A stretch of DNA of 64,000 nt from Candidatus Oxydemutatoraceae bacterium (GCA_965212025.1 OZ243039.1:111216-175215); one strand, 5' to 3'. Numbered from the stretch's first letter, positions 31,386 through 51,061 are shown. Numbers and translations: made by a program. Notes: generated by a model from the sequence alone, not told the origin.

Positions 31386-31504
31386 CTCATGAAAAACGCC
31401 TGCCCACGCGGGCGACAGGAAACCTGAAACGGCTGCTTTTCCACCGGAGCTTCAGCACATTGTCATCAATCATTCTCACCACGGAAGGCTCCACCCCACT
31501 CAAA

Positions 31505-31663: not shown

Positions 31664-31708
31664 ACGCGTTAGCCGTCGCCTGGAACGACTTGTTAGGTGT
31701 TTTCATTA

Positions 31709-32059: not shown

Positions 32060-32135
32060 TTTTTTATCTCCATTTCTTTTGTTTACGAAAAATAGAAAGG
32101 ATGAGTTGAACGACACTCTAAAGAAAAAAGTAAAG

Positions 32136-32292
32136 CAAACTTTAGTTTGCGGTATTTTTTCGCAAGAGTGACTGGAGTGTTGGCTCCAGCGATTCGTTTC
32201 CCGTCCGCTTGCGGCAGGGAATAAAAACTCGCTCAACTCACCGCTTTCCCACTGGCGCAGCGGGCGACAGTGGGAAAGCTTGAAGTCACCTG
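32136..32292. repeat. Direct repeat copy 2 (about 155 bp). It is the partner of 31505-31663
   Basis: The sequence is the same except for a few substitutions, including in the hairpin loop (ggcgcagcgggcgac versus gacgccgcaggcatc). Confidence 0.8.
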
Positions 32293-32681
32293 TCCCACAA
32301 GCGGCAGGTGGAGTGATTTGTCAGCTTACTGCTTCCTCAACCAATCTACTACAACTTCTCCTGATTTTTCAGACACTTCAAAATGTGTTGTTTCAATAAT
32401 TTTCCATTGATTGTTTGAGCTTGTTGGCACATGGGAGAAATCATAACCTTTGTTCTTGTGTTGTTTTTTACGTGTCGCCCGGACAATCCGGGACACAGGA
32501 CTCATCCAACGGCTATCCGCCATATTCCACAAACTTTCTCAATCGCAAAAATAACACAATTTTAGAGGCTGTTTGCCTGAGCTTTCGGCGAATGGCACGC
32601 TTCAGGCAAACCCACGCCGGGAAAAACACCCCTGACCGGAAACATCTGCCGCAACCCAGTCACACATTGGACAGGCGTAGC

Positions 32682-33821
32682 CTAGCGTATACGAATGTAG
32701 GCGCCATTTTTACACGCCAGAAAGCCACTCAGCTCCAGTCCCAGAAGCAGGGATGACACCTCGGACACCTCCAGTCCGGACGTTTCCACCAAGGCATCCA
32801 CAAAAATTCCCTCGTCATGGGATATAGACTGAAGCAAATTCTCCTGCGCCCGACTGAGCTCCTGGTATTCACCGGCAACATGACTTTGTTCACGCTGTTG
32901 GTGTGCCTGACCCTCTACCGCCCGCGCTGGTGTCATCCCGGACTTTTCGCAGACAGACGGCAGTTCATCCAGCACATCCTGCGCGGACTGCACAAGCTTG
33001 GCACCCTCCTGTATCAACTTGTGACACCCCGACGCCATGGGATTGATGATTGACCCAGGCACGGCAAACACCTCCCTGCCCTGTTCTCCGGCGAGCCGAG
33101 CCGTAATCAGGGAGCCACTGCGCTTTTCCGCCTCAATGACCAATACACCCAGCGAAATACCACTCATCAGACGGTTACGGCGGGGGAAGTTCTTTCTGTG
33201 AGGGGCGACACCGCAGGGAAATTCAGAGATCAAAGCTCCGTTTGACACGATTTGACGCGCCAAACCCCAATGCCGTGCGGGATAGACCGTTTCCAACCCG
33301 GTGCCCGCCACTGCAACGGTTGTACCACCAGCACCCAGAGCCGCCCGATGGGCTACAGCGTCAATCCCCAACGCCAGCCCGCTGGTAATCGTCAGACCAG
33401 ATTTGGCAAGCTCCTGCGTCAGCTCTCTGGCGTTGCGCTCACCACCCGGCGAAGGATGACGCGAACCCACAACCGCAAGTTGCGGACGATTCAGAAGCGA
33501 TACGTCTCCGACCGCGTACAAGACAAGCGGGGGATCGGAAATTTCCCGCAACAGCCTTGGATAGCACTCGTGACTATGGGGCAACAAGTGATGATTTCTG
33601 CACTGCAACCAGCCCAAATCCCTGGACAGAGAGTCGGGATCCACAGCGTTCAGGCACTTGAGCACTTCATCTTTGAAACCGGCCGAACGTAGCTGCCCAG
33701 CACTCGCCGCGAGCACTGCCTGAGCATCGCCGAAGGCTTCAAGCAGGCGTATGGCAGTCACGCAACCAATACCCGGAGCGTGATGCAGGCGCAACCAGGC
33801 TATGGCATCGTCAGGAAGCAC
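32682..33821 (-). CDS. dprA: DNA-processing protein DprA (Smf)
   Basis: Rossmann-like core GIDAVAHRAALGAGGTTVAVAGTGLETVYP… The length of 379 aa fits DprA. Confidence 0.8.
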   Translation of the reverse strand: MLPDDAIAWLRLHHAPGIGCVTAIRLLEAFGDAQAVLAASAGQLRSAGFKDEVLKCLNAVDPDSLSRDLGWLQCRNHHLLPHSHECYPRLLREISDPPLVLYAVGDVSLLNRPQLAVVGSRHPSPGGERNARELTQELAKSGLTITSGLALGIDAVAHRAALGAGGTTVAVAGTGLETVYPARHWGLARQIVSNGALISEFPCGVAPHRKNFPRRNRLMSGISLGVLVIEAEKRSGSLITARLAGEQGREVFAVPGSIINPMASGCHKLIQEGAKLVQSAQDVLDELPSVCEKSGMTPARAVEGQAHQQREQSHVAGEYQELSRAQENLLQSISHDEGIFVDALVETSGLEVSEVSSLLLGLELSGFLACKNGAYIRIR

Positions 33822-33946: not shown

Positions 33947-34492
33947 ATGGCTAAATTGGAAATACTCATTTTCCCGGACACAAGACTGCGGAAAAAGGCC
34001 GTACCAGTTGAGTGCATAGACGACAAAGTGCGCCAGATGGCAGATGACATGCTGGAAACCATGTACCACCACGAAGGAATCGGGCTTGCAGCGGTACAAG
34101 TCAATATCCAGCAAGCGTTGGTCGTGATGGACTTATCAGACCGGAAAAATGACCCCAAACAACTGATAAACCCTGTGCTAAAGCACGCCGAAGGGGAAAT
34201 CATCATGGCAGAGGGCTGCCTGTCTGTTCCGGAATTTCAAGCCGACGTCAAGCGCGCAGAACATATCGTCGTCAACGCCCTCGATGTCAACGGCGAACCC
34301 ATTGAGCTGGAAGCCAGCGGCCTGGCTGCGATCTGCCTGCAACACGAAATGGATCACCTGAACGGAAAGCTCTTTGTCGATTACCTGTCTCCCCTGAAAC
34401 GCTTTCGTCTGATGGAAAAGCTCAAAAAAGAAAACCTCGGGCGCCTGAAAAGCCAGCCAAACGCCAACAGAGACGTGCTTTCCCAGACTTAG
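33947..34492 (+). CDS. def: Peptide deformylase
   Basis: The motifs [17 protein letters not shown] and HEMDHLNG are present. Confidence 0.9.
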
Positions 34493-34539: not shown

Positions 34540-35541
34540 GTGTTGCGCGTTCTTTTCGCCGGCAGCACACCGCAGGCAAAAACTGTTTTGCAGTACCTCC
34601 TGGAAAGGCAGGACACCCGATACCGCATCTGCGGGGTTTATACCCGACCAGACCGAGCCAGCGGCCGCCGGCTACGAATCCATAAGGCACCAACCGCCAC
34701 TTTGGCAGAGGAACACCAACTTCCCGTCGAGAAGCCTGACACCTGGACTCCCAAAGCACAACAGTGCCTGGCGGGTTTTTTCGCAGACCTCTTCATCGTA
34801 GTCGCCTACGGGGCTTTGCTCCCCCGCACCATACTCGACACGCCAAAACTCGGCTGCGTGAACATCCACTACTCTCTGTTGCCACGCTGGCGGGGAGCCG
34901 CGCCCGTTGAACGCGCCATTCTTGCCGGAGACCGACAGACCGGAATCAGTCTGATACGCATGGCGGAAGCCCTGGACGAAGGCGATATCATCACCGCTCA
35001 CCCACTGACAATCCACAAGACCGCCACAGCCGGCGAACTGAAAGAGCAACTCACCACCATCGCATGCAAATTGCTGGATCAATTCCTTGCCGAACCAGAC
35101 ACGGCACTGCAAAAAGCGCAAACACAGGCGAGAGAAGGAGCCACATACGCTACAAAAGTGCGCAAGGCAGAAACCTTGATAGACTGGAAGAACAGCAGTG
35201 CCGAACAGGTAGTCCGCCAGGTCAATGCCTTTAATCCCCGCCCGATGGCACACACCATTATCGCCGGCAAAAATGCACGCGCTTCGGACGGAGCTGCCAC
35301 AGCCTGTCTACATCTGCACTGTCCGGAGACGGTCAACCCGGGTGACACACGCATTAACATACTGCGTGCCAGCGTTGCCGAAAAAAAGCACCCACACACC
35401 GTTTCCGGACACATGAGGAAAGACCACAGGCGACTGCTGGTTTCCTGCCAAACCGGCACTGTGGAAATTCATGAACTGCAGCCACAAGGGCGCAAAGCCA
35501 TGAAAGCCATCGATTTCATCAACGGCTTCCTTCCTTCCTGA
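34540..35541 (+). CDS. fmt: Methionyl-tRNA formyltransferase
   Basis: The N-terminal formyltransferase domain (…NIHYSLLPRWRGAAPVERAI…) plus a C-terminal domain. It lies immediately after def. Confidence 0.85.
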   Translation: MLRVLFAGSTPQAKTVLQYLLERQDTRYRICGVYTRPDRASGRRLRIHKAPTATLAEEHQLPVEKPDTWTPKAQQCLAGFFADLFIVVAYGALLPRTILDTPKLGCVNIHYSLLPRWRGAAPVERAILAGDRQTGISLIRMAEALDEGDIITAHPLTIHKTATAGELKEQLTTIACKLLDQFLAEPDTALQKAQTQAREGATYATKVRKAETLIDWKNSSAEQVVRQVNAFNPRPMAHTIIAGKNARASDGAATACLHLHCPETVNPGDTRINILRASVAEKKHPHTVSGHMRKDHRRLLVSCQTGTVEIHELQPQGRKAMKAIDFINGFLPS

Positions 35542-35545
35542 AAGC

Positions 35546-36130
35546 ACCCGGCACACCCACGCGTCCCTACCTGCACAGCTCAAAGCCAGGACGAACCACA
35601 CAAAGGCATGGCATGACAAGGAACCAGGAATCACAAAGGGAAGTAACCCTGGTCAGAGCACTGCCGACAGACTGAATGTTCGCGCCTTGCCACCCCCCAC
35701 CCATGGCGTGGCACACTCAAAGCCAGGACGAACCACAGAAGGCATGGCATGACAAGGAACCAGGAATCACAAAGGGAAGTACCCTGGTCAGAGCACTGCC
35801 GACAGACTGAATGTTCGCGCCACCCCCCACCCATGGCGTGGCACACTCAAAGCCAGGACGAACCACACAAAGGCATGGCATGACAAGGAACCAGGAATCA
35901 CAAAGGGAAGTAACCCTGGTCAGAGCACTGCCGACAGACTGAATGTTCGCGGCACACCCACGCGTCCCTACCTGCACAGCTCAAAGCCAGGACGAACCAC
36001 AGAAGGCATGGCATGACAAGGAACCAGGAATCACAAAGGGAAGTACCCTGGTCAGAGCACTGCCGACAGACTGAATGTTCGCGCCTTGCCACCCCCACCC
36101 ATGGCGTGGCACAAAGAACCCATCTGTCCG
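35546..36130. repeat. Tandem repeat, unit about 130-136 bp, about 4.5 copies. It is non-coding
   Basis: The unit is ctcaaagccaggacgaaccaca.aaggcatggcatgacaaggaaccaggaatcacaaagggaagtaaccctggtcagagcactgccgacagactgaatgttcgcg…ccatggcgtggcaca, starting at 35579, 35715, 35845 and 35979. Confidence 0.85.
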
Positions 36131-36219
36131 CCAACAGGCAAGACCGGGAACGCATTCAAAAGGAACCCCTGACGGTACAGGAGCGAAAAACACGTCGGGA
36201 CAGTTAGACAGCTGACGCT

Positions 36220-36966
36220 TTATTGTCGGGCAAGCGGACCAGACAGCTTCTCCAGGTACATTTCGTACTTGACCTCTCCGTTGACGATTTTTTCACCCCT
36301 CACCGGCAAATAATCGTATCTCGGACTCGTCCAGAACCGGTAGTCTGTTTTTCCTCCCCTGCGCCGTTCCAGGATTAATGTCCGCAACGGACCGAGAACC
36401 GTATCGATTTCTTCCTCACCGACAACCTCGTAACGGTGGTCTTTCAGTTTTCCCCTGCTGACAACCCGGTAATCCCACGGCCCCGATTCCCCACCCTTCA
36501 TGTCCGCCATAATCTGCGCCTGCATGGCTATCTCATCCAACGTTCCGGCAGACACCGGAAACTCATCCTGCCTTCCCCGGTAGACGACCGAAACCTGACT
36601 CTTTTCCCAGTCGAAAAAAAGCTCCTCCCTGATATCCTTCCCGATCTTTGCCACGTAGTTCAAGGGCACAATGCGGGCATCAAGCCACCGCATGTTCCCC
36701 ACCTTCATTTCCGAAGGTACAAACAGGGAAAAAAGACCCGAAGGAACAAGCTTGCGCGTCATCACATGCCCATTTTCAGAGCGAACAAGGCTCAGCTCCA
36801 GATCGGCACCGTAGAGGGCTGCCGTTACCCGGTAAGAAGCCATGAAATCAGCCAGGGGAAAGTCGCGACTGCCAGCGTAACCGGGAAGTGTACAAAGCCC
36901 TGCCCAAAGCAGGGCAAGGGCAAAAGCAATGGAGCGTATGCTCCGTGGCAAGCGCCTGTTTCTCAT
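36220..36966 (-). CDS. Secreted hypothetical protein (DUF3108-like)
   Basis: The signal peptide is MRNRRLPRSIRSIAFALALLWAGLCTLPGYA. The DUF3108 assignment is from memory and is tentative. Confidence 0.4.
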   Translation of the reverse strand: MRNRRLPRSIRSIAFALALLWAGLCTLPGYAGSRDFPLADFMASYRVTAALYGADLELSLVRSENGHVMTRKLVPSGLFSLFVPSEMKVGNMRWLDARIVPLNYVAKIGKDIREELFFDWEKSQVSVVYRGRQDEFPVSAGTLDEIAMQAQIMADMKGGESGPWDYRVVSRGKLKDHRYEVVGEEEIDTVLGPLRTLILERRRGGKTDYRFWTSPRYDYLPVRGEKIVNGEVKYEMYLEKLSGPLARQ

Positions 36967-37367
36967 CACCTGTCTGGAAAACATCAGAACCCTGTGCGTG
37001 GTATTTAGTTCCGGAAGACACACCCACGTCTCCCCGAAAGACTGGCAGTGATAACACACGGGCGAGCTGATGGCAAGGAATGCCGGCAAACTCCCCGGCA
37101 CACACGTCTCACGCTGCTGCCTGGAGGCTTATCAGTTCTGAAGGATGGCTCCGACTACGACAACACCCTCAGCTTCCACGGGATGATCCCCTGCTTGCTT
37201 TCCATCGACCAATAGATACAGCACAATGCCGTGATCACTCATGGTATTGGGCACCCAAATACCAGCAACGAAGCGGAGACTGTCAGGCTTCCAATACCTT
37301 CTGTCAGCTTCTGACCCAACAAGCCTATCAGGTTCAATAACGCGACCTGCATGGATGGCCGAACCTC

Positions 37368-40300
37368 CTACCGTACTGCACCTCCTAAATACACCCTCAC
37401 ACGCAGCGACATCGCGGAGAAGATGTCTCCTCCTGCAAGCCGTAATGTTGGCAGCTCATCGTCTCTGCCAAAATTCCAAACCCCTTCGCTCCATCCGGCG
37501 TATGTGACAGCCGGCAATCCACACGTCCCGCCAGCCGCTGCGCCAAGTGCGGTCGGACAGGCAAGCTGCTCAGAAGTACGTATCTCGCCCCAACTATTTT
37601 CCTGACCTGTGTATGTGTGGTAGCTGCTAGCAATGCTGTCTTCGCCACCTTCGCTAAAGCCCACGAGACCACCAATTCTGGTGGTTGTCCCTGTTACTGT
37701 GCTAACTGTGCTAACTGCGTAGGTGTTACTGATGATGCTGCCGATTCCATGGAACCCTACGAGACCGCCAACATTTTTCACCCCTGAAACGGAACCCGTC
37801 GCATAGCTATCTGTGACGCTTGATGCGGCTTGGTATCCCACGAGACCACCAACGTTGTTTCCCCCTTCTACTCTGCTGTCTGCATGGCTTCGGCTGATGC
37901 TGGCACCCTCTTTATTTCTTCCCACGAGACCGCCAACATCATTTACTCCTGTTACCGTACTGGCCGCATAGCTGTTGCTGATGGAACCAAGGCTCTCTCC
38001 CACGAGACCGCCAACGAGGTCAGTGCCTGTTACCGTACTGGCCGCATAGCTTCGGCTGATGCTGGCACCCTCACCATTATTTCCCGCGAGACCGCCAACA
38101 TTATCGCTTCCACCAGAAACTGAGCCTGTCGCATAGCTGTTGCTGATGAAGCCATGGCTGCCGCCCACAAGGCCGCCAACGTTATCGCCGCTTCCAGAAA
38201 CTGAGCCCGTCACGTAGCTGTTGTTGATGAAGCCATGGTTGCTGCCTACGAGACCGCCAACATTTTTCACCCCTGAAACGGAACCCGTCGCATAGCTATC
38301 TGTGACGCTTGATGCGGCTTGGTATCCCACGAGACCGCCAACGTTGTTTCCCCCTTCTACTCTGCTGTCTGCATGGCTTCGGCTGATGCTGGCACCCTCT
38401 TTATTTCTTCCCACGAGACCGCCAACATCATTTATTCCTGTTACCGTACTGGCCGCATAGCTGTTGCTGATGGAACCAAGGCTCTCTCCCACGAGACCGC
38501 CAACGAGGTCAGTGCCTGTTACCGTACTGGCCGCATAGCTTCGGCTGATGCTGGCACCCTCACCATTATTTCCCGCGAGACCGCCAACATTATCGCTTCC
38601 ACCAGAAACTGAGCCTGTCGCATAGCTGTTGCTGATGAAGCCATGGCTGCCGCCCACAAGGCCGCCAACGTTATCGCCGCTTCCAGAAACTGAGCCCGTC
38701 ACGTAGCTGTTGTTGATGAAGCCATGGTTGCTGCCCACGAGACCGCCAACATTTTTCACCCCTGAAACGGAACCCGTCGCTGAGCATCCCTCTATCACAC
38801 CTAAGCTGTAACCAACCAGTAACCCTACGCCATTAAGCCCGGTCATACGCGAACCGACCAGTATGACGTCCCGTATGGTCGCACCTTCTGCCAATACGGA
38901 GAACAGACCTACGTTGCTTTCGGTGCTGCGGCTGATCGTCAGCGAACTGATCACGTAGTTGCTCTCGTTCACGAAAGAGCCCGAAAAACTTGCGATCGGC
39001 TCAAAACCTGCACCCTCGTTCCAATCCTTGGTCTCACTGGCATCAATGGTTTTCACCAGCCCGTAATACGCACCCGGGTTCGATCTCACATCCTGCAGCT
39101 GACAGAGCCTTTTGATCTGGTAGGGATCCTCTTGTGTCCCCATACCCTTCTGCCCTGCCACCAAGTCCACACCCAGCTCCGGAGAGCACACCGTTTTGAT
39201 GGTGACGGTGAACGTGGTCCTTTCACCAGCAGGACTTGCAACTTCCAGCACAAAGCTACCCACAGGGTCAAGCGAACTGCGGCGCACCTCCACCTTAACA
39301 GTGCCTCCCTTTGTCGTACCGCTGAACACCACAGTCGAACCCTCTGCTATGCCATCCCTGCTGAAAAAATCCCACGATAAACCGGCACCGCCAGAGTCAG
39401 GACTATCGGGGTCGGTTGCGCTAAATTTTAGAGTGGCACTGGACGAACTATCCTGTATCGTTCTGGTCTGCTCCCTTCCACCAACCACCATCGGGCGCGG
39501 GTTCCCAACCAAAACCGGAAGCCGGTCAACATTGTCAAAAATACTGTTCGTGAGCTCAACATCAAAGCTCTCGCCAGCCAACCCAGCCAGCCCCCCATTG
39601 CCCACTATCACAAGCGTTACAACAGAGCCATTTACCTCTGTGCCGGTTGTGTCCTTCGCAGGGTCAACAAAGTAGACCAAATGATGCAGCAAGGGCGGCA
39701 CGCCGGAAAGAGACCACGTGAAAGTGACTGATTCTCCAGGAGGACCCGGGTAATCTGCCTCCAAGGTAAGACGCGCAGTGCCCGTAGAATCCATCCTCAC
39801 CACCAACTTGGCGGAACCTTTGATATACGGCTTCCGGTTCAACTCCGAATTCCGGTTGCCAAACAGTTGCGGCAAGTCCGTAGCGCTGCCAAAGTCCCAA
39901 ACACCCGTGTCCCAATCCCTGTAAGTCCTTTCGCCTGAATCCGACAGACTACAGGTCGCGCTGGCCGCCGTCGGACAACGCAACTGCGCAAAGATGTGTT
40001 CTTCCCCCAAGCCATTGTTTCGTCCTATGGCAGCATAATAACTGTTAGTGATGGAGGGGTCTAAACTCTCGCTGCCCACAAGACCGCCAATTCCGTCACC
40101 GGTTCCGGAAACCAAACCCGTAGCGTAGCTGTTGTTGATGGCACTGAAGGAATGGGTAATCCGACCTATAAAGCCACCAACATCACTCTCCCCGGAAACC
40201 GAACCCGTCGCATAGCTGTTGTTGATGGCAGCACTCAAGGTGTAGCCCATAAAGCCACCAACATTGGATTTCCCTGTTACCATGCTGGCAGAATAGCTGT

Positions 40301-41016
40301 TGTCAATGTTCCCTCCTGTAATACGGCCCGCGAGGCCACCAATGTAGTCACCGGTTCCAAAAACCGAACCTGTCGCGTAGCTGTCTCTGATGCGTAGAAT
40401 GTCACTGAATCCCACGAGGCCGCCAACATACTGACCCTCCCCGGAAACCGAACCCGTCGCAGAGCAGTCCTCTATCACACCTTCGTTGCTGACCAACCAA
40501 TGACCCTACGTATTCATCCCCGGTCGTACGCGAGCCGACCAGTATGATGCCTCTTAGCGTCGCACCTTTTGCCAATCGGGAGAACAGACCTACGTTGCGT
40601 TTCGGTACTACGATTGATCGTCAGCGAACTGATCACGTAATTGCGTGTGCTCACGAAAGAACCCGAAAATCCATTCTACCTGTCGCAGTACTTGCGATCG
40701 GCCTAAAACCCGCACCAATATTCCAAGTCTTGGTCTCACTCGCATTAATGTCGGCCACCAGAACGTAATGCGCTGTTAGGCTTGAACTGATGTCTTGTAA
40801 CTGACACAGCGTGGCAATTCGATAAGGGGTGCTGCTGCTTCCACTCCCCTCCTTCACCTTCATGGCAGATGTGCACCCATCGGAGGCCTGTACTAAGGCG
40901 GGCGACAGAGTGCAGAACAAAACAAGCAGCAGGCTGACACACGCTGCCTTTCCAAAATCCGTCAAGACCGCACCCAAAACCGCATGTCTGATACAACGAA
41001 CACCAAGTTTTGCCAT
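37368..41016 (-). pseudogene. Giant surface-protein gene A. It has a signal peptide, an N-terminal conserved domain (EDPYQIKRLCQLQD…), multiple about 20-aa Gly-rich 'NNSYATGSVSGxxDVGGLVG' (GLUG-like) repeats and a conserved C-terminus. It is disrupted near its 5' end (40500-40660) by indels
   Basis: The main ORF 37368..40496 is 1042 aa. The N-terminal fragment ORF 40651..41094 carries the signal peptide and the domain start, and the rest continues in shifted frames. A perfect 489-bp in-frame internal duplication occurs (37770-38258 = 38259-38747). Confidence 0.6.
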
Positions 41017-41939
41017 AAACCACCCCAACAACCAATAACAACAGACTAAAGACGCGGGACGACGATACGCCATATTGTGTCGCAAAGCAAACAAACGAAC
41101 CAGTCTTAGGAGCAGACCACTATGATACTACTTTTGGGGTAGATAAAAACACAATAAACAGGGTTATCCGCTCAGTAAAGCCTGGCCAAACAGCAAGCTG
41201 TCAATGGCTTTAAGCCTTTGGGGGGGAGGCAGAACAGGAAACAATGACCTGGCTTTTCGTCAGGTTTGGTGCGGGAGCGTTCCGGAAGCATCGTACGCCT
41301 GCCAGGCCACAGCATTCAGTCACTCACTGCCAAACATATTGTCAAACATTGGAGACTGTTGGGGGCATCAATGGCCGCCCGGAAAATCTGAAGGCAGTGA
41401 TAACACATGGGCGGGCTGATGGCAGGGAACGCCGGTGTCCCCGGCGCACATGTCTCACGCTGCTGTCTGGTGTCTTATCAGTTCCGAAGGATGGCTCCGA
41501 CTGCCACGCCACCCTCGGCTTCCGGGGAATAGTCCCCTGTTTACTTTCTCCTGACCAACAGATACAACATAATGCCGTGACCACTTTCATGGTATCGGGG
41601 CACCCAAATATTTACGACGAAGCTGGGATTATCAGGTCTTCCAATACCTTCTGTCAGCTCCCTCTCCAATAAGTCTATCAGGTTTAATAACACGGCTTTC
41701 ATGGATGGCAATCTCTTCCATAAAAACCTGGATAAACCAAGCTTGCCCGGGGGTCTTTTCTGCCTGAATACATACAAAGCCAGGCTCTTAATAAACCACA
41801 GACGTTTGCCATCAAGCCAGTACATTGACCGGCCAGCATTCAGGATTATTCCGGGTCAGCCTTTTCGCAGCCTTTTCTCGCCTCGCTCTTACCTGTCTGT
41901 CCTGCCTTTTCCGCTATCCCAAAGGAGTGACCGAACCTC

Positions 41940-44900
41940 CTACCGTACTGCACCTCCTAAATACACCCTCACACGCAGCGACATCGCGGAGGAGTCGGGG
42001 TCTCCTCCTCCTCCAGACCGTAATGTTGGCAGCTCATTGGCGGTGCCAAAATTCCAAACACTTCCGCTCCATCCGACGTATGTGACTGTGTCAGCCGGCA
42101 ACGGACACGTCTCACTGGACATTGCGTCAGGTGCGGTCGGACAGGCAAGCTCCTCAGAAGTACGCCTCTCGCCCCAACTGCTTTCCTGACCTGTGTATGT
42201 GTAGTAGCTGTTAACAATGTCACCTTCGCCACCTCCGTTAAATCCCACGAGACCACCAACATTGTCTCTCCCCTTTACTGTGCTAACTGCGTAGGTGTTA
42301 CTGATGCTGGCACCCTCACCATTACTTCCCACGAGACCACCAACATTGTCTCTCCCCACTACTGTGCTAACTGCGTAGGTGTTACTGATGCTGGCACCCT
42401 CACCATTACTTCCCACGAGACCACCAACGAGGTCAGTGCCTGTTAACGCATAGCTGTCAGTCCCACGAGACCGCCAACATTATTTACTCCTGTTACCGTA
42501 CTGGCTGCATAGCTGTTGCTGATGGAACCAAGGCTCTCTCCCATGAGACCGCCAACGTTGTTCACCCCTGAAACAGAACCCGTCGCATAGCTATCTGTGA
42601 CACTTGATGCGGCTTGGTATCCCACGAGACCGCCAACATCATTTACTCCTGTTACCGTACTGCCTGCATAGCTGTTGCTGATGGAACCAAGGCTCTCTCC
42701 CACGAGACCGCCAACATTATTGCCGCTTCCAAAAACTGAGCCTGTTACTGAGCATCCCTCTATCACACCCGCGCTGACACCAACCAATAACCCTACGTTA
42801 TTACGCCCGGTCACTCTTGAACCGACCAGTATGACGTCCCGTATGGTCGCACCTTCTGCCAATCTGGAGAACAGACCCACGTTGTCCGTACTACTGCGAC
42901 TGATCGCCAGCGAACGGATCACGTGGTTTCCCGGGTTCACGAAAGAGCCCCTAAAGTTTGCGATCGGCTCAAAACCCTCACCGTCATTCAGCATACTCGG
43001 GCTATTCCCATTAATCTCAGCAGCCAATTCGAAGTACGCTGTTGGTCTTGAACCGATGTCTTGTAACTGGCAGAGCCTCATGATCTGGTAGGGTTCGTCT
43101 TTGCTGCCCGAGCCGTTTGCCGACGCCAAGTCTTCGCCCGGCACCTGAGAGCATGCCGTTTCCATGGCGACAGTGATCAAGGTTCTTGCACCAGCAGGAC
43201 TTACAACTTCCAGAACAAAGCTACCCACATCATAAAGGTCAGGCGAACTGCGGCGCACCTCCACCTCAACAGCGCCTCCCGTTGTCGTACCGGTGAACAC
43301 TACAGTCGAACCTGCTGCTATGTCATCCCTGCTGAAAAAACCCCACGATAAACCGGCACCGTCAGAGTCAGAATTGTCGAGGTCAGTTGCGCTAAAACTT
43401 AAAGTGGTTCTGGTCGAACCATACTCTATCGATCTGATTTGCTCCATCCCGCCATCCACCATCGGGCTCCCCACATTCTGAATCAAAATCCGGTCATCAT
43501 CGGTGGAAACATTGTTCCCGAGCACAACATGAAAGCTCTTTCCGGCCAACCCTTTATTGCCCACTACCTCAAGCCTTACCGTACTGAAATCAGTCGTGCG
43601 GTCTCCGCCAACAGTCAAGGTTGTGCTGGTCATACCGCGTCCGAGGTCAAAGTAGACAAAATCGCTTAGCGAGTCCGGTATGCCGGAAAGAGACCACGTC
43701 AAAGTAACACGTTCTCCCGGAGTACCTGCGTAATCTACCTCCAAGGGAAGTTGCGTGACGTCCGCAAGATCTATTCTCACCACCAACTCGGTGGAACTTC
43801 TGATATATGGCTTCAGGTTCAACTCCGAATTCGGGTTGCCCAACAATTGCGGCAAGTCCGTAGTACTGCCAAAATTCCAGACACCCGCGTTCCAATCCCT
43901 GTAAGTCATCTCGCCGGAATCCAACGAACAAGTCGCGGTAACCGTCGTCGGACAACGCAGCTGCGCAAAGGTGCGTTCTTCCCCCAGACCATTGTTCCGC
44001 CCTCTGGCGGCGTAGTAACTGTTAACAACTTCATAGTTGCTAACAACTCCAGAATTCGAAACAGTTTGTCTCGCCGTTCCCACGAGGCCGCCAACATCAT
44101 CTCGCCCGGAAACCGAACCTGTCGCGTAGCTGTCTGTGATGCTTGAGCCACGTTGTTGTCCCACGAGTCCGCCAACATTTTCTCGCCCGGAAACCGAACC
44201 TGTCGCGTAGCTGCATAGCTGTTGTCGATGTCGGAAGTTTGAAACCCCACGAAACCACCAATGTTGTCACCGATTCCAAAAACCGAACCCGTCGCGTAGC
44301 TGTTGCTGATGGTTGAGCCGGAATTTAGATTCCCCACGAAACCACCAATGTTGTCACCGTTCCAAAAACCGAGCCCGTCGCGTAGCTGTGGTTGATGTCT
44401 GCGTTCCGTTGAATGCCCACGAGGCCGCCAACAAGAAAGATCGCCCGGAAACCGAACCCGTCGCATGGCTGTTGCTGATCCTTGGTCTGTAGGTTATGGT
44501 TACATGGTCGGCCGTGTCGCCGATTGTGAATCTCCCACTAGGCCGCCAACTTCTATTCCCCGGAAACCGAACCTGTCGCGTAGCTGTTGTTTATGATTGC
44601 ATCGCTTTTCCCACGAGGCCGCCAATAAATTTATCCCCAGAAACTGAACCCGTCGCATAGCTCTTGTTAATGGTTCCAATCAACAATACTTGACCTAAAT
44701 TCTGAAGCGTTGCATTGTTCTGTACTGCCCTTCCCACGAGGCCGCCAACACTTGCTCGCCCAGAAAACCGAACCTGTCGCGTGGCTGTTCTTTATGACTG
44801 CGACTCCTAGCATGGAAACCAACGAGGCCGCCAACATCAGATGTTGACCCGAAAACTGACCCCGCCGCAGAGCAGTCCTCTATCACACCTTGACTGTGAC

Positions 44901-45432
44901 CAACCAATGACCCGACTACACCAAGCGCGGTCGTACGTGAGCCGACCAGTATGATGCCTCTTAGCGTCGCACCTGCTGCCAATTGGGAGAACAGACCTAC
45001 GTAGCCTTCAGTACTACGATTGATCGTCAGCGAACTGATCACGTAATTGCGTGTGCTCACGAAAGAGCCAGAAAATCCAACTAAAAAGCCAAATCTAGTC
45101 GCAGTACTTGCGATCGGCCTAAAACCCTTATCTCTGTTCCAAGTCTTGGTCTTACTCGCGTTAATGTCGGCCACCAGAACGTAATGCGCTGTTGGGTTTG
45201 AACTGATGCCTTGTAACTGACACAGCGTGGCAATCTGCCAAGGATTGTTTTTGGTTCCACTCCCCTCCTTCACCTTCATGGCAGATGTGCACCCATCGGA
45301 AGCCTGTACAAAGGCGGGCGACAGAACGCAGGACAAAACAAGCAACAGGCTGACACACGCTGCCTTTCCAACATCTGTCAAGACCGCAACTGAAACCGCA
45401 TGTCTGACACGACTGACACCAAGTTTTACCAT
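41940..45432 (-). pseudogene. Giant surface-protein gene B, a tandem paralog of gene A. It is heavily degraded into at least four ORF fragments
   Basis: The fragments are 41940..42416 (C-terminus shared with gene A), 42443..44164 (573 aa, GLUG-like repeats plus middle domain), 43906..44466, and 44695..45504 (signal peptide MVKLGVSRVRHAVSVAVLTDVGKAACVSLLLVLS…). The repeats in 44200-44700 are decayed. Confidence 0.55.
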
Positions 45433-46235
45433 AAGCACTCCAACAGGCAATGACGGGAAACGAAAGACGCGGACAGCGATACGCCATATTGTGGCGCAAG
45501 GCAAAGAAACGAACCAGTCTTAGGAACAAGGTCATCATTCTACTACTTTTGGGGTAGATAAAAACACAATAAACAGGGTTATCCGCTCAGTAAAGCCTTT
45601 GGGGGGAGGCAGAACAGGAAACAATGACCTGGCTTTTCGTCAGGTTTGGTGCGGGAGCGTTCCGGAAGCATCGTACGCCTGCCAGGCCACAGCATTCAGT
45701 CACTCACTGCCAAACATATTGTCAAACATTGGAGACTGTTGGGGGCATCAATGGCCGCCTGGAAAATCTGAAGGCAATGACAAGCGGGTTGGACTGAGGC
45801 TGACATCGGGAAACGTCGACGAACTTTTTGGTAGGGAATTTGGAGGATATGCGGCCGGCCGGGGAAGTCCGCTGAAACCACACCAGAACGCCAAAGCTTT
45901 GGCGGGGAGGCTGATTGACCGAAATTGCAGAATATCCAAGATGGGGGGCTTAGTCCGTGATGCTTTGCGTCAGTACCCGGGTATGACCTGAAAACAGAAG
46001 AGCATGGGCAGGCTGCTGCAAACCATTGGCTGGACTTGTCAACACACCGGCGAAATAAACCAGTCCAGAGGTAGCGGACTCCACAGCGTCTTCCCTGTCG
46101 TACACGTCTGGAACCTTTCAGCGCCAAATTTCCCCAAGTCTGCATCACAGACTGGCGCTACGGCTTCATCCATCGTGGCATTAAACGAACGCACAATGCC
46201 AAGTGGCCAATGCTTCTGCTATACTCTTTCCGCAC

Positions 46236-46808
46236 ATGGCTTCCCTCCTTCCAATGCCACGTACGGCTACGTTTTCGAGCCTGGTTTTTTTTCTGCTGTT
46301 TGCAAGCGCGACACAGGCCGCCGACTTCGTAACCATCGACAATATCCAGAATCCGGTACGCCATGACACCGTCTACGTTCACACCAAGGCCAAGATCCTC
46401 CTGCCGTTCTGGGCCGAAAAAATGCTACGTGAAGGGGTTCCTTTGGAGTTCATTCTTGATATAGAAATTCGTGAGCACCGGGAATGGCTGCTGGACAAAC
46501 TGCTGGTCAACATCAGCGTCAAACGTCGCTTGGGATATCGGCCGGAAACCGAAAGTTACGTGGTGGAAAAGCTCCCTGGTGGCGATCATACATCGTTCGA
46601 AAAACTGGCTTCCGCATTGGGATATCTCGGAAATTACCACAACATTCCAGCCATTTCCGAAGAAATCGCCAGATCGTTAAAGAAACCATACGTCAGGGTA
46701 CGTGTGACCGTACCCAGAACAATTCTGCCACTGGACGCACAGTTGGAAAGTCTGATTTCCGGTCACTTTCTGCTTTCGTCTGGCTGGTATATAAAGGACT
46801 TGAGATAG
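46236..46808 (+). CDS. Secreted hypothetical protein (DUF4390-like)
   Basis: The signal peptide MASLLPMPRTATFSSLVFFLLFASATQA is present. The family assignment is tentative and from memory. Such genes usually neighbour rsmB. Confidence 0.4.
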   Translation: MASLLPMPRTATFSSLVFFLLFASATQAADFVTIDNIQNPVRHDTVYVHTKAKILLPFWAEKMLREGVPLEFILDIEIREHREWLLDKLLVNISVKRRLGYRPETESYVVEKLPGGDHTSFEKLASALGYLGNYHNIPAISEEIARSLKKPYVRVRVTVPRTILPLDAQLESLISGHFLLSSGWYIKDLR

Positions 46809-46976
46809 GCCTGCCTGCTCTCTTGATTTTGGAAGCAACAGTCAGGTCGCCAACTGCGCGGCAATTTTGGGCGCACACCTTCCGCCCTGCAAACTGACAA
46901 ACCGTCGTTCAGGCAGACAAATGAGAACCGATAGTCCGCGCATCCTGGTGGGCAGGGTATATGTGACACCACCGTC

Positions 46977-48350
46977 ATGAAAATTATCGTTCTTGGATCC
47001 GGGCAGATCGGTACTTCCCTGGCATCCATACTTTCCCGGGAACATCATGACATCACGCTCATTGGCACAGATGCGGAAAGACTACATGAATGCCAGAACC
47101 ATAATGATTTGCGCGTCGTGAACGGACACCCTTCCCACCCCCACGTTCTGGAACAGGCCGAGTCCGGAGACGCCGATATGATGGTTGCCTTGACGGGAAG
47201 TGATGAAACCAACATGGTGGCGTGCCAAGTGGCACACACCTTGTTCAATGTGCCGAAAAAAGTGGCACGGATTCGGGCGCTCTCGTACCACGAACGCCCG
47301 GATCTGTTCAGAAATGACGCCATCCCCATTGATTTCCTGATCAGCCCGGAAAAAATGGTTTCACAAAATCTTGCGCGGCTGATCAGGGTCCCGGGAGCCT
47401 TGCAGGTCGTCGAATTCGCTGCGGGGAAATTATTGCTCGTGGCGGCAAACCTGGGAGAGAACACTCAGCTGACAGGACGAACCCTGCGAGAGTTCAATAA
47501 TGTCTTGCCCGGCGTCACGGCTCGCGTAGTTGCCATCTATCGGAACAACCACATGCTGTTTCCGGACGGCTCACTGCGACTGAAATCCGGAGACGAAATA
47601 TTTTTTGTTGCCCCTGAAAAGCATGCCAAAACTCTGACGGCGGCTTTAAGTACCAATCATCGCCCGTCACGAAAAATTATTATCGCGGGAGGCGGATATA
47701 TCGGGAAAGATTTGGCGCAAATCCTGGAAGATGACCACAGCGTGAAGATAATTGAATGTGACAAGTCGCGCGCCAAATACCTGGCGTCTGTTTTGGACAA
47801 AGTCATTGTGTTGCGTGGCGATGCCACCAGCGAAGAAATGATGGAGCAGGAAGACATTGCAAGCACGGATATGTTTTGCGCGCTAACGAATGATGACGAA
47901 AACAACATTCTGTCGGCGATGCTCGCGAAGAGGCTGGGGGCACAAAAAGTTGTTTCCCTGGTCAGTCGGGCAAGCTACATCAACCTTATCCAGAGCGGTA
48001 CGATTGACATCGCAATCTCTCCCCAATACGACACTGTGGACGCGCTGTTACGGCATATTCGCCGCGGCGATATCGCCAGTGTGCATTCCATGCGCCATGG
48101 CAAAGCGGAAGTAATAGAAACCATCGCCCATGGCGACCATGAGAACTCTAAAGTGGTTTCGCGGACGGTAGAGGAAATCGACTTTCCAGACGGGGTCGTC
48201 ATCGGGGCACTCGTGCGAAACGACGAAACAATTATGGTACACAGAGACACGACCATAGAGTCCGGCGACCACATCATCTTGTTCGTCGGCGACAAAAAAC
48301 TGATCCCACAGGTGGAAAAACTGTTCCAGGTTAGCGCGACGTTTTTCTAA
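46977..48350 (+). CDS. trkA: Trk potassium uptake protein TrkA (two NAD-binding plus two TrkA-C domains)
   Basis: MKIIVLGSGQIGTSLA… and a second KIIIAGGGYIGKDLA Rossmann motif. Length 457 aa. Confidence 0.85.
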   Translation: MKIIVLGSGQIGTSLASILSREHHDITLIGTDAERLHECQNHNDLRVVNGHPSHPHVLEQAESGDADMMVALTGSDETNMVACQVAHTLFNVPKKVARIRALSYHERPDLFRNDAIPIDFLISPEKMVSQNLARLIRVPGALQVVEFAAGKLLLVAANLGENTQLTGRTLREFNNVLPGVTARVVAIYRNNHMLFPDGSLRLKSGDEIFFVAPEKHAKTLTAALSTNHRPSRKIIIAGGGYIGKDLAQILEDDHSVKIIECDKSRAKYLASVLDKVIVLRGDATSEEMMEQEDIASTDMFCALTNDDENNILSAMLAKRLGAQKVVSLVSRASYINLIQSGTIDIAISPQYDTVDALLRHIRRGDIASVHSMRHGKAEVIETIAHGDHENSKVVSRTVEEIDFPDGVVIGALVRNDETIMVHRDTTIESGDHIILFVGDKKLIPQVEKLFQVSATFF

Positions 48351-49798
48351 TGCGTTCGCTACTGGTCCCCAGGACTCTCGGCATCCTGTTGATGTTTTTT
48401 AGTAGCGGGATGCTCATACCTCCCCTTTTGGCGTTGGCTTACAACGAAGCTCAGGGTTGGGTTTTTCTTGTCGGTTTCGCTATCACTTTCTTAAGCGGCG
48501 CTCTGCTGTTTCTGCCAGCGCGAAATGCGCGCGGCAACATGACCTTACGTGAGGGCTTTTTAATCGTCGTATTGTTCTGGATCGTCCTGGGTCTTTATGG
48601 AGCCCTGCCCTTCCTGCTTTATCGGACGCCCGATATTTCCGTTTCCAACGCCGTGTTTGAATCCTTTTCGGGACTGACCACCACTGGTGCAACTGTGCTA
48701 TACGGGCTGGATGACATGCCCCGTGCCCTGCTGTTTTATCGCCATTTGCTGCAATGGATTGGCGGACTCGGGCTCATTGTGCTGGCGATCGCGGTTTTGC
48801 CCATACTCGGCGTCGGCGGTATGCAATTATTCAAAACCGTAACTCCGGGGGCGATTCGAGACCAGAAATTCACACCGCGCATAAAAGTCGCGGCACAGAT
48901 GCTCTGGTACATTTACCTTGCCCTGACTGCCGCTTGCGCTTTGGGCTACTGGCTCGCCGGCATGTCTCTTTTTGACGCGGTCTGCCACTCTTTTTCCACC
49001 ATCTCAATCGGTGGCTTTTCAACCCATGACGAAAATTTCGGATACTTTGACGGCTTCTGGATAAAAGCTGTTGGCATCTTTTTCATGCTCATTGCAGCCA
49101 CAAATTTCTCTTTGCATTTCATGTTTTTCCGGCGGCGATCCCTCAGACCTTACCTGGCGGACCATGAACTGAAGACTTTTCTGCACATCATCGCTCTGGT
49201 GTCGGTATTGACAATTCTTTACCTGGCACTCAGCAACACTTTGGCAACTGAAGAAGCCATGATGCAGGGGGCTTTTCAAGCGGTGTCCTTTGCGACCACC
49301 ACCGGCTACACGACCGCGGATTTCAGCTATTGGCCTGGCTTTGTGCTTTATTTCCTGATACTTGCCAGCTTCATTGGCGGCTGCGCCGGTTCAACAGCCG
49401 GAGGATTAAAAGTGTTGCGCTTTCGCCTCCTGATCAAGGAATGTTCGCGCGGATTCTTCTGGCTAATCCATCCTCGAGCCGAAGCCCCATTGAAATTTTC
49501 CGGTAAAATTATTCCGGAAGCGACCATGCGCTCAGTGTGGCGTTTTTTTTTCGTCTACATTCTGGTCTTTTTCATACTCATGCTGTTCCTGCTGGCTCTC
49601 GGCTTGCAGCCAGACAGCGCTTTCTCGGCAGCTGCGGCAATGTTGAACAACCTGGGGCCGGGGCTGAATGAAGTCGGTGCCAATTATGCACTGGTCAGCG
49701 CTCCCGGAAAATGGGTGATGTGTCTGGCAATGCTGCTTGGCAGACTGGAGATTTTTACATTGCTGGTCATTTTCACGCCGCGCTTCTGGAGTCGCTGA
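48350..49798 (+). CDS. trkH: Trk potassium uptake protein TrkH
   Basis: A 482-aa polytopic protein with TrkH-type selectivity-filter-like repeats (…GFSTHD…, …TTTGYTTADF…). Confidence 0.8.
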   Translation: MRSLLVPRTLGILLMFFSSGMLIPPLLALAYNEAQGWVFLVGFAITFLSGALLFLPARNARGNMTLREGFLIVVLFWIVLGLYGALPFLLYRTPDISVSNAVFESFSGLTTTGATVLYGLDDMPRALLFYRHLLQWIGGLGLIVLAIAVLPILGVGGMQLFKTVTPGAIRDQKFTPRIKVAAQMLWYIYLALTAACALGYWLAGMSLFDAVCHSFSTISIGGFSTHDENFGYFDGFWIKAVGIFFMLIAATNFSLHFMFFRRRSLRPYLADHELKTFLHIIALVSVLTILYLALSNTLATEEAMMQGAFQAVSFATTTGYTTADFSYWPGFVLYFLILASFIGGCAGSTAGGLKVLRFRLLIKECSRGFFWLIHPRAEAPLKFSGKIIPEATMRSVWRFFFVYILVFFILMLFLLALGLQPDSAFSAAAAMLNNLGPGLNEVGANYALVSAPGKWVMCLAMLLGRLEIFTLLVIFTPRFWSR

Positions 49799-50355: not shown

Positions 50356-51061
50356 ACGAGGCATCAAAAACCAAATTTGAGCCAGGCAAGCTGATTAAGA
50401 AAACACTTGAAATTCGCCACGCACAAAGCCGGTTTGTCCTGCGATGCTAAACCCTCGCACCTGAAATCGTCAAGGAAGACCATCCAGGTGATGCGCCGGA
50501 ATTCTGTTCGCGCATCACAACATCACGGCATCACGGCATCACGGCATCACGATATGCAGGAATCCTCAAGAGCGAGTCAATACCTGTGACCTTGTCGAAA
50601 GCTGTGGGATCTGCGGTCATCTTGTGTCAGGAAAAAGCAGTACGGCCAGGCTGCAGAACGAGCCGCACCTTGCTTGGGAAGTGAATGTGCACCTCGGAAT
50701 TGATAACCTCAAGGACAGGATTAGATCGCAAGTGCGGGGTTCGCGGACTTATTCCGCCGGGATTTTTGACTATGATGGGCGGTGCATACGTCATGCTGTT
50801 CTGCAGGTTGATAGCGACACTGTCGGAACCGTGTCAATTCTTTGCAGGAGAATTTTGCAACCCGGGCGTTCTCAGCTGGCGTAAGGGTGCCGGCTGACGG
50901 TGCCCACGTGCCCCCGCAAACATTTGTTAAAGGTGGCAGAAACAACCCTGATGCTGATAAAGGAAGGTTAACCGGTTCGCATTCCGGTCAGGCTTTCCTG
51001 GCATCGGAAAGCACGGGGAAGACCCCTGCCAATACCCCAAACATAAGCCGTTGGATTTAAA

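Follow-up and report, generated by a model that had tools for sequence, protein, structure and literature searches.

Between fmt and trkA, where rsmB would be expected, the 64,000-nt stretch of DNA analysed here (the window) carries two giant repeat genes that are both broken, which raises the question of what these genes encode and whether they still vary as live surface-protein genes or are remnants. We consider it likely that the locus is the decayed local version of a conserved, recombination-prone locus, and that both genes are defunct members of a family of secreted beta-helix proteins that is confined to this lineage and probably acts in adhesion.

The layout of the locus is as described in the original prediction. 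dprA (32682-33821, minus strand) and def (33947-34492, plus) precede fmt (34540-35541, plus), the intact left anchor of the locus (Pfam Formyl_trans_N, 2.3e-33; Formyl_trans_C, 5.2e-20), which is 88% identical at the nucleotide level to the fmt region of a 3.0-Mb relative (L005). The fmt-trkA interval holds a DUF3108 gene, two tandem GLUG-repeat genes of ~3.5 kb on the minus strand (genes A and B) and a DUF4390 gene, and is followed by trkA and trkH, both intact (46977-49798, plus; trkA, 46977-48350; TrkA_N, 1.4e-48; TrkH, 2e-83). The housekeeping genes around the locus are intact. Between the convergent fmt and DUF3108 genes lies an A-rich intergenic tandem repeat of 4 x ~132 bp (2 x 267 bp) at 35549-36113 (TRF score 831-929, 88-92% matches), two units of which match exactly over 103 nt; it gave no RNA-fold signal (z-scores -0.14 to +1.67). 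rsmB is indeed missing from its usual place after fmt. The RsmB SAM-binding motif CAAPGGK is absent from every frame of the whole 64-kb window and no recognisable rsmB remnant was found in the intergenic DNA flanking the block.

The DUF4390 gene (46203-46808, plus; PF14334, E=8.5e-23, 81 bits versus a cut-off of 27) had been counted as part of an inserted block. It is a homologue of plrP, the normal neighbour of rsmB in the canonical order rsmB-plrP-ntrY-ntrX-(trkAH) (PMC13001219), and is therefore not cargo; it represents ancestral context and the right anchor of the locus. Close plrS neighbourhoods have an adjacent sensor kinase and an upstream rsmB in 98% (PMC13001219). In the window, plrP is orphaned (i.e., ntrY/ntrX, too, are missing after it), and neither a kinase gene (ntrY/plrS) nor rsmB was found at the window locus or at the corresponding loci L002 and L003. 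trkA directly follows plrP in all three genomes, after a gap of 169 bp in the window, and the window PlrP is 93% identical in amino acids to that of L003 and 76% to that of L002. The order and orientation of plrP, trkA and trkH are thus shared with the rsmB-plrP-plrS/ntrY-plrR/ntrX-trkA-trkH cluster of beta- and gammaproteobacteria; however, the window and both relatives lack rsmB and the NtrYX-type pair at the locus, and GLUG/DUF3108 cassettes occupy rsmB's place. The DUF3108 gene (36220-37023/37101, minus) is intact, encodes a signal peptide (PF11306, E=1.3e-14, 54.9 bits versus a cut-off of 26) and is 100% identical to the 267-aa public protein P0135. DUF3108 has a YmcC-like beta-barrel fold (PDB 3FZX; PMC4364669), and a sequence search of the PDB with the window protein returned no match.

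GLUG-type repeat proteins with a signal peptide had been predicted for gene A (37368-41016, minus) and gene B (41940-45432, minus), and Pfam searches bore this out. The long, 1042-aa ORF of gene A (37368-40496, minus) matches GLUG (PF07581) with E=2.1e-59 (194.4 bits versus a cut-off of 20.5), and all four gene B fragments also exceed this cut-off (25-55 bits). The repeats recur every 78-84 bp (26-28 aa) and are thus longer than the ~20 aa originally given. Each gene encodes a Sec leader, a first series of cap, GLUG beta-helix, cap and two Ig/cadherin-like domains, a second series of cap, helix and cap, and a C-terminal tag; the 1042-aa ORF covers, in order, the end of helix 1, C-cap 1, two Ig/cadherin-like domains, N-cap 2, ~20 GLUG coils, C-cap 2, a linker and the tag. 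A conserved "N-domain" noted earlier is present but occurs twice per gene, which reveals a two-module architecture, and the copy quoted as this domain, EDPYQIKRLCQLQD, is the second cap, located after the middle domain.

The 5' fragment of gene A (40651-41016, minus; ORF translation) encodes MAKLGVRCIRHAVLGAVLTDFGKAACVSLLLVLFCTLSPALVQA, an extended Sec-type leader, followed by the first part of N-cap 1, and the leader M.KLGIRCVRRAVSGA.LTDFGKAACVSLLLVLSCVLSPAFAQA is common to most full-length homologues. At the other end, an invariant 12-residue tag, LRV(R/K)VYLGGAVR, stands directly before the stop codon in all of the 27 or more intact 3' ends examined. It reads LRVRVYLGGAVR in gene A (37371-37406, minus) and recurs in L002, which is more distant (LRIKVYLGGATR). 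The earlier reading had overlooked that each gene consists of two modules, that the leader is conserved and the tag invariant, and that the genes are set in cassettes, as described below. Read directly from the sequence, the tag has no hydrophobic helix, and NCBIfam sorting domains gave no match to known C-terminal sorting signals (PEP-CTERM, GlyGly-CTERM, LPXTG, IPTL-CTERM and others); the tag could be a novel sorting signal. Searches for a TPS domain, an autotransporter barrel or a T1SS signature were negative. Pfam and NCBIfam detected neither TPS (PF05860) nor ESPR (PF13018) in the leader-bearing fragments or in the intact homologue P0002, no autotransporter Pfam match indicated a type Va 12-strand beta-barrel in these proteins, which end in LRVRVYLGGAVR after a short linker, and the loci inspected contained no TpsB or transporter gene.

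AF2 modelling of the gene A ORF yielded a beta-helix with pLDDT ~90 (190 aa of coils) and an Ig-like domain and second cap with pLDDT ~80-94; the last 31 aa scored 33-39, and the first Ig-like domain was modelled at low confidence. Foldseek returned IgA1-protease helices as the best PDB matches of the predicted helix (3n6z, TMq 0.52; 6xja, TMq 0.47; prob 1.0) and cadherin EC12 as the best match of the Ig/cadherin-like domain (7tni, TMt 0.61, E=1.6e-4), and the window genes gave no Pfam cadherin or Ig match. The GLUG region thus models as the same beta-helix as the IgA1 protease N-terminal domain. The N-cap weakly matches Peptidase_M26_N (E=7.7e-4), and the window genes had no match to Peptidase_M26_C and scored 19 bits for NCBIfam ZmpA against a cut-off of 3000. 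An adhesin-like or protease-associated role, as originally suggested, is reasonable as a conjecture because of this IgA1-protease-like helix model and a matrixin fragment in a relative (below).

Both copies are degraded, as predicted. In gene A, where a break had been placed near 40500-40660, a three-frame trace and alignment with gene B revealed three disabling indels in the first cap domain (40489-40679, minus): a 10-bp deletion at ~40679 and +1 insertions at ~40599 and ~40489. These indels lie in non-repetitive cap sequence, and their sum of -8 bp puts the leader and the 1042-aa ORF in different frames. A further 3.1 kb of gene A, of the same repeat type as gene B, is free of any frameshift and includes a recent internal duplication of 2.1 copies of a 489-bp unit of six GLUG coils (37756-38780, minus; 99% matches, TRF score 2029). 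Gene B has the same architecture but is split into at least five ORFs with in-frame stops (three-frame trace, motif/frame scan). At least three breaks had been claimed here; we found nine frame changes between successive GLUG motifs, eight in 44835-44212 and one at 42478 to 42428; homopolymers in the lesion contexts do not exceed 5 nt. An intra-coil deletion at ~42440 is out of frame. No lesion in the window lies in a long homopolymer. Both the gene A duplication and the gene B intra-coil deletion speak for recombination.

The conserved 5' region of gene A (41017-41420, minus) contains a TTGACA-containing block at 41184-41218. Compared with the DNA upstream of gene B, its overall identity is 84% and rises to 96-100% over a 190-bp stretch; upstream of gene B, the 35-bp TTGACA block is deleted at ~45598/45599. 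Both copies would be pseudogenes here, gene A through its out-of-frame leader and gene B through its frame changes and the loss of this promoter-like block, and we thus expect no surface product from the locus. The suggestion of live "repeat-driven variation" is not supported, because the number and kind of lesions point to dead genes.

A tandem duplication with conserved 5' and 3' flanks had also been proposed, and the comparison of genes A and B agrees: homologous segments with 80-96% identity are spaced by 3968-4416 bp, and both flanks are conserved. One copy of a 3' intergenic element directly follows the gene A stop codon (37044-37369, minus). A second copy (41393-41709, minus; 81% identity to the first) lies downstream of gene B, from whose stop codon it is separated by a 220-bp insert (41710-41939). 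The 40 copies of this element gathered from the window and related loci showed no consistent reading frame, codon periodicity or excess RNA structure. In relatives, homologous ~310-bp regions lie directly upstream of most family genes and the DUF3108 gene is part of the repeated unit; each repeated cassette comprises a 5' region of ~310 bp, one giant gene and at least one 3' element of ~230 nt, in some cases also DUF3108.

Sponge-associated gammaproteobacteria of one lineage (Ca. Porisulfidus / Oxydemutatoraceae) carry this locus, and the source is probably a sponge-symbiont genome. DUF3108-GLUG-plrP-trkAH synteny is common to two other genomes of the lineage. The 2.0-Mb relative (L002) has DUF3108, a four-module gene, plrP and trkAH; its GLUG gene carries at least three frame changes (i.e., it is broken too), and this outgroup resembles a small state of the locus. 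In the 3.0-Mb Ca. Porisulfidus relative (OZ244118.1), fmt (end ~2,087,117) and plrP (start ~2,247,871) are ~161 kb apart, and the ~103 kb sampled of this interval holds at least 16 intact family genes, all on the same strand and encoding 754-5453 aa (~86 kb coding), plus fragments. DUF3108-homologous DNA recurs in this array as one intact copy (L006 14583-15386) and several degenerate ones, and one fragmented array member contains a Matrixin C-terminal part (30.3 bits versus a cut-off of 24). The flanks are 93% identical to the window in nucleotides, the GLUG genes only ~70-75%. What had been termed an accessory block is thus not a strain-level insertion, given a layout common to two other genomes and a ~161-kb array in one of them. 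A search with the non-GLUG part of the protein gave only 25 representatives at E<=1e-30 among 1.84 billion, and sequence searches indicate that the tagged GLUG family, which is uncharacterised, is lineage-restricted. Among the best 120 of 4970 matches, homologues from the 1.92-Mb source contig were P0001 and a tag-less distant GLUG protein, P0115; the homologue matches listed included no intact family member from the source genome.

We propose that the product of a cassette gene comprises a long Sec-type leader, one to several cap/helix/cap/Ig modules, a final helix, a flexible linker and the 12-residue tag, where a module would have an N-cap and a C-cap at the two ends of a right-handed beta-helix built from GLUG coils of 26-28 aa, followed by two Ig/cadherin-like domains. 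Most likely, such proteins leave the cell and act as rigid rods, either on its surface or after release, that bind ligands of the host or the matrix; they would probably serve as adhesins. Copy number and gene length probably change via unequal recombination between cassettes and between coils.

Intact genes could look broken if the frameshifts were assembly or consensus artefacts of strain mixture or repeat collapse in a long-read metagenome assembly. The lesions do lie in repetitive DNA, and the related genomes are PacBio HiFi/metaMDBG-type metagenome assemblies, in which strain variants can be merged (PMC12988363). We nevertheless think this unlikely: the gene A indels fall in non-repetitive cap sequence while 3.1 kb of near-identical repeat type has zero shifts, gene B combines its nine frame changes, in contexts lacking homopolymers above 5 nt, with in-frame stops and a missing conserved upstream block, and the syntenic gene in the independent 2.0-Mb genome is broken as well. 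That the 1042-aa ORF still functions as a leaderless protein from an internal start is extremely improbable; although it is long, uninterrupted and called as a protein in public data (P0001), it starts within a GLUG coil without the leader and first cap present in every intact relative, and a cytoplasmic role for a beta-helix/cadherin-like rod with a C-terminal export-type tag is not obvious.

Broken copies might instead serve as silent donor cassettes of antigenic or phase variation that feed an expressed copy elsewhere, as patchy high identity (5' region 96-100%, coding 80-90%), the recent 99% internal duplication in gene A and the fast evolution of family genes relative to their flanks would allow. 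Yet each copy still has a leader, a 5' region and a 3' end of its own, in the manner of full genes and not of cassettes lacking a promoter, array members in relatives are intact complete genes, the listed homologues include no intact family member from this genome, and the locus showed no gene for an invertase or recombinase, which makes this explanation very unlikely. It also seems improbable that the family is primarily proteolytic or enzymatic, with the beta-helix as a substrate-binding arm as in IgA1 protease. The closest solved folds, the weak N-cap similarity and the Matrixin fragment fit such a role, but a peptidase domain is absent from both window genes and from the intact 2612-aa and 1803-aa homologues tested, and ZmpA scores of 19-33 bits fall far below the cut-off of 3000. 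We therefore retain the reading of a decayed locus of probable adhesins. A bolder extension of it, which we regard as doubtful, is that the tag and leader mark a new route by which these sponge symbionts export or anchor giant beta-helical proteins, that DUF3108 may be a receptor or chaperone, and that the fmt-plrP locus is a dedicated generator of surface-protein diversity. If so, the route would be previously undescribed, and the locus may grow to ~5% of a genome or collapse, as here, once its function is no longer needed.

Several known systems resemble this family in part. Streptococcal IgA1 protease / ZmpA-C and the Bacteroides ovatus "putative IgA1 protease" BACOVA_03286 (PDB 6XJA, 3N6Z) share Pfam GLUG and the predicted beta-helix, and the similarity of the window sequence to PDB chains is marginal (E ~3e-3). 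In contrast to IgA1 protease, the window genes lack the M26 catalytic domain, LPXTG and Gram-positive anchoring, and are multi-module, with Ig/cadherin-like spacers, another leader and a unique C-terminal tag. TpsA/FHA-like hemagglutinins with GLUG repeats are likewise proteobacterial exoproteins of very large size, with a beta-helix and an extended signal peptide, and the distant matches P0031 and P0048 have ESPR, TPS and GLUG domains; the window genes differ in having neither TPS nor ESPR, and their loci in having no TpsB. Chlamydial Pmp autotransporters, a polymorphic multigene family of beta-helical surface proteins, share with the present family the many paralogues per genome, short glycine-rich repeats folded into beta-helix coils, members that are often frameshifted, and presumed host interaction. 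Pmps, however, are type Va proteins with a C-terminal beta-barrel, whereas this family has the 12-residue tag at its C-terminus and its genes form a single, very large head-to-tail array at one fixed site of the chromosome.

The original prediction placed two degraded giant genes for glycine-rich repeat proteins in an accessory block between fmt and trkA, where rsmB would be expected. We derived the gene order from an ORF listing and Pfam scans. It runs from recG through a 203-aa ORF with no Pfam match (31709-32320, minus strand), dprA (32682-33821, minus), def (33947-34492, plus) and fmt (34540-35541, plus) to a DUF3108 gene (36220-37023/37101, minus; PF11306, E=1.3e-14), gene A (37368-41016, minus), gene B (41940-45432, minus) and a DUF4390 gene (46203-46808, plus; PF14334, E=8.5e-23), followed by trkA, trkH, a UPF0093 gene and a Na/Ca exchanger. 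The housekeeping neighbours are all intact. GC content across the block is even (0.50-0.56), so composition gives no sign of foreign origin. rsmB is indeed missing after fmt: the whole 64 kb, read in every frame, lacks an RsmB-type SAM motif, and three-frame translation with a motif search found no rsmB remnant in the bordering intergenic DNA (35542-36219 and 45505-46202).

Both giant genes encode GLUG-repeat proteins. The 1042-aa ORF at 37368-40496 matches the Pfam GLUG profile at E=2.1e-59, and all larger fragments of gene B score above the GLUG gathering score. As predicted, the two are tandem paralogs with conserved flanks, forming direct-repeat units offset by 3968-4416 bp with segment identities of 80-96%. 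The shared flanks comprise ~390 bp upstream, including a 190-bp stretch at 96-100%, and ~320 bp downstream at 81% identity. The repeat period within the genes measures 78-84 bp, equivalent to 26-28 residues rather than the ~20 first estimated, and gene A carries a 489-bp internal duplication at 99% identity.

The predicted fragmentation of both genes was borne out. A three-frame trace and alignment to gene B revealed a 10-bp deletion (~40679) and two single-base insertions (~40599 and ~40489) in the first cap (helix end) domain of gene A, which put its leader in a different frame from the 1042-aa ORF. Gene B has nine frame changes between consecutive GLUG motifs: eight fall within 44835-44212, and the ninth, at 42478 to 42428, is an out-of-frame deletion within a coil (one GLUG repeat unit). 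That these breaks are artefacts of assembly strikes us as quite improbable. The longest homopolymer at every lesion site is at most 5 nt, and in gene A repeats of this type run for 3.1 kb without any shift. A deletion upstream of gene B (~45598/45599) has removed a 35-bp block that includes a perfect TTGACA; this block is present upstream of gene A (41184-41218) and kept upstream of family genes in relatives. We thus read genes A and B as real pseudogenes and infer that their function has been lost in this genome. For annotation, the GLUG ORFs of the window should be entered as GLUG-family pseudogenes and the DUF4390 gene as an orphaned plrP.

The DUF4390 protein located the two nearest genomes. 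OZ244118.1, labelled uncultured Ca. Porisulfidus sp. (2,997,607 bp), shares 93% amino acid identity in DUF4390 and 93% nucleotide identity in the flanking DNA, and OZ250161.1, a Ca. Oxydemutatoraceae bacterium (2,000,500 bp), shares 76% amino acid identity in DUF4390. Both Porisulfidus and Oxydemutator are reported as sponge symbionts (PMC12988363, PMC11685487). Sanger sponge-project genomes of this kind are PacBio HiFi/metaMDBG assemblies (PMC12988363). In the 2.0-Mb genome (locus L002) the order is DUF3108, one family gene, plrP, trkA and trkH. The family gene encodes four modules, each built on a GLUG helix between two caps, behind one leader; it has at least three frame changes, so this copy has decayed as well. 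In the 3.0-Mb genome (the relative that supplies loci L003, L005 to L009 and L011), plrP adjoins an intact four-module protein of 2612 aa with zero frame changes, and a second family gene comes next. Judging from this synteny, the block is a conserved locus and not a private insertion. The observation behind the original prediction was confirmed and its core interpretation right; what needs correcting is where the block begins and ends, its description as accessory, and the architecture.

Further homologues looked up in the 3.0-Mb chromosome all lie on the same strand, at ~2.085-2.248 Mb. There, fmt (88% identical to that of the window) ends at ~2,087,117 and plrP starts at ~2,247,871, giving a fmt-plrP interval of ~161 kb compared with 10.7 kb in the window. 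The ~103 kb of this interval that we sampled holds 16 intact family genes with ~86 kb of coding sequence, whose products measure 754, 970, 1083, 1091, 1102, 1271, 1343, 1353, 1547, 1651, 1855, 1903, 2088, 2612, 2700 and 5453 aa. It also holds one intact DUF3108 gene and several degenerate copies. Similar arrays occur on lower-coverage contigs of the same ENA assembly, and a second, smaller family locus of the 3.0-Mb genome (L008, L009) adjoins McrBC and fragmented type I R-M genes. A dozen ~70-aa head-to-tail ORFs of unassigned nature also adjoin that locus. Two stretches inside the array (L011 4969-5445 and 7585-8127) encode small tail-anchored coiled-coil proteins with AAENKN-type internal repeats that have no counterpart in the window.

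Family genes of the window and the 3.0-Mb relative are ~70-75% identical while their flanks are 93% identical, an indication that array members turn over fast or are replaced by non-orthologous ones. We propose that array size would change through unequal recombination, both between cassettes and between coils. At the array edge (L005 20192-20892) lies a partial second copy of the 3' half of fmt, 85-92% identical to window positions 34777-35591, and this anchor gene seems to have been duplicated in part as the array grew. As to the direction of change, the small state is the one seen in the outgroup, which would favour expansion in the 3.0-Mb lineage; however, both small-genome copies are decaying. 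At this single site, bounded by housekeeping anchors, the 1.9-Mb genome has two pseudogenes and the 2.0-Mb genome one broken gene, whereas the 3.0-Mb congener has ~161 kb containing at least 16 intact giant genes. The contrast amounts to a clean natural experiment that shows how genes for host interaction expand and decay. Sponge symbionts have inflated repertoires of adhesion-type repeat proteins, and to our knowledge the gain and loss of these repertoires are poorly documented.

We reconstructed the protein architecture from intact homologues and two AlphaFold models built on family alignments. The leader is long and Sec-type, with a basic extended n-region, a hydrophobic core and an AxA site (e.g., MVKLGVSRVRHAVSVAVLTDVGKAACVSLLLVLSCVLSPAFVQA/S, the slash marking the site). 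Module 1 consists of an N-cap (…PYxIxxLCQLQ…), GLUG coils, a C-cap (NSYYA…GLGE…QLRCP…W.FG..DLPQL) and then two Ig-like domains; module 2 consists of an N-cap, ~20 coils and a C-cap, followed by a variable linker and the protein terminus, LRVRVYLGGAVR. The predicted signal peptide, repeats and shared C-terminus stand, and the single N-domain and middle domain give way to two modules, each with its own N-cap. The coil region is predicted to form a beta-helix (pLDDT ~90) whose best PDB matches are 3n6z, a 'putative IgA1 protease' (TMq 0.52), and 6xja, the S. pneumoniae IgA1 protease (TMq 0.47). The second Ig-like domain is modelled confidently, with a cadherin repeat as its best match (7tni, TMt 0.61), and the first Ig-like domain and C-cap are modelled poorly.

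The last 12 residues form a tag, L[RK][VA][RK][VM]YLGG[AS][VT]R, found directly before the stop codon at all of the 27 or more intact 3' ends examined, in both window genes and in the gene of the 2.0-Mb relative. What stands before it, across a variable linker, is a C-cap in some cases and an Ig-like domain in others; this speaks for an element in its own right that does not belong to the fold before it. A flexible tail is suggested by pLDDT values of 33-39 over the final 31 residues, tag included. The tag has no transmembrane segment and matched none of the NCBIfam sorting-signal models; fitting no known sorting signal, it offers a concrete starting point in the search for a mechanism of secretion or anchoring. 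Searching 1.84 billion representatives by a full HMMER scan with the C-cap and Ig-like region recovered 84 proteins at E<=1e-3, 25 of them at E<=1e-30. The weak matches were confined to the C-cap, evidently an end-piece common to GLUG helices in general, and on these searches the family appears restricted to this lineage. A word-based search with the leader recovered 14 short proteins. Public data list the ORF-A protein on a contig of 1,918,571 bp. At least one further GLUG protein comes from the source genome: P0115, from public data, lies on the same 1.92-Mb contig as the window, has 1584 aa and an fn3 domain, is 31% identical and lacks the tag.

These proteins would be exported by Sec, followed by a further outer-membrane step, and may act as rigid rods, displayed on the surface or secreted, that attach to ligands of the host or the matrix. 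Whether they serve adhesion specifically is, in our view, evenly balanced. A protease-associated role is possible for some members. The adhesin or protease-associated reading of the original prediction gains from the IgA1-protease-like helix fold and from a fragmented array member (L007 4618-7644) with a Matrixin/metzincin C-terminal part (PF00413, 30.3 bits against a cut-off of 24), so at least one family member was once protease-linked. It does not extend to an M26 catalytic domain; neither this nor TPS, ESPR or autotransporter-barrel domains occurred in the family proteins scanned. No paper in the literature searched links GLUG proteins to sponge symbionts; relative to that literature, the kind of protein is known and the variant and the behaviour of its locus are new. 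The larger context, namely a lineage-specific cassette family, a unique tag and a ~161-kb array in a congener, is of more interest than the window pair itself.

The cassette comprises a 5' region, the family gene, a 3' element and sometimes DUF3108, and constitutes a unit trackable across metagenomes. The 5' region (~310 bp, 70-82% conserved) lies directly upstream of most family genes. The 3' element (~230 nt) follows every family gene, starting directly after the stop codon and often in tandem, with copies in the window at 37044-37369 and 41393-41709, in related loci such as L004 and L007, and up to ~10 in L011 1589-4479. We rejected it as a gene, since the longest ORFs lie in differing frames among copies and variation has no 3-nt periodicity, and as a structured RNA (RNAalifold -63.8 versus -60.3 +/- 3.6 in column shuffles). 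Opposite-strand ORFs of 150-611 aa in the relatives' arrays (L011 1589-4479, with 352- and 611-aa calls; L005 14815-15279; L006 9160-9633 and 15615-16136) were likewise rejected as genes and attributed to antisense read-through of tandem intergenic elements. Their peptides are repetitive and have tblastn matches in the window's intergenic DNA; these public gene calls are probably spurious.

By genetic criteria, PlrP (DUF4390) belongs to the NtrYX-type PlrSR system as its third component; of the close plrS neighbourhoods, 98% have rsmB and plrP upstream of plrSR, and trkAH sometimes comes after (PMC13001219). In the window (gap 46808-46977), L002 and L003, trkA directly follows plrP with no NtrY/NtrX-type kinase or regulator between them; thus rsmB and ntrYX have been lost or moved from the cluster, leaving plrP orphaned. 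DUF3108 proteins are beta-barrels with a YmcC-like fold (PDB 3FZX; PMC4364669). The co-travel of DUF3108 in the cassette is striking, and a search for its close relatives gave only four matches, all from this lineage and from contigs that carry GLUG genes. DUF3108 is intact in the window beside two dead GLUG genes, and just one copy is intact in the large array, which argues against a strict one-to-one partnership.

An Rfam scan of 35000-47000 (E<=1) returned only a chance lncRNA match, and promoter and terminator scans gave counts no higher than background. Convergent fmt and DUF3108 are separated by an A-rich tandem repeat of four ~132-bp copies (35549-36113), in which two variants alternate with a 267-bp super-period; the relative has one copy (L005 22638-22760), and fold z-scores of -0.14 to +1.67 led us to reject it as an RNA. 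The 203-aa ORF between recG and dprA sits in a low-GC patch (31500-32500, GC 0.40-0.42 versus ~0.54 around). Two sequences that are single-copy and intergenic in the window (50456-50670 and 53688-53908) occur as three to four tandem copies in L003 (14443-15020 and 18384-18894), and the genomes of the window lineage and the 3.0-Mb relative seem prone to tandem amplification of ~200-bp intergenic segments.
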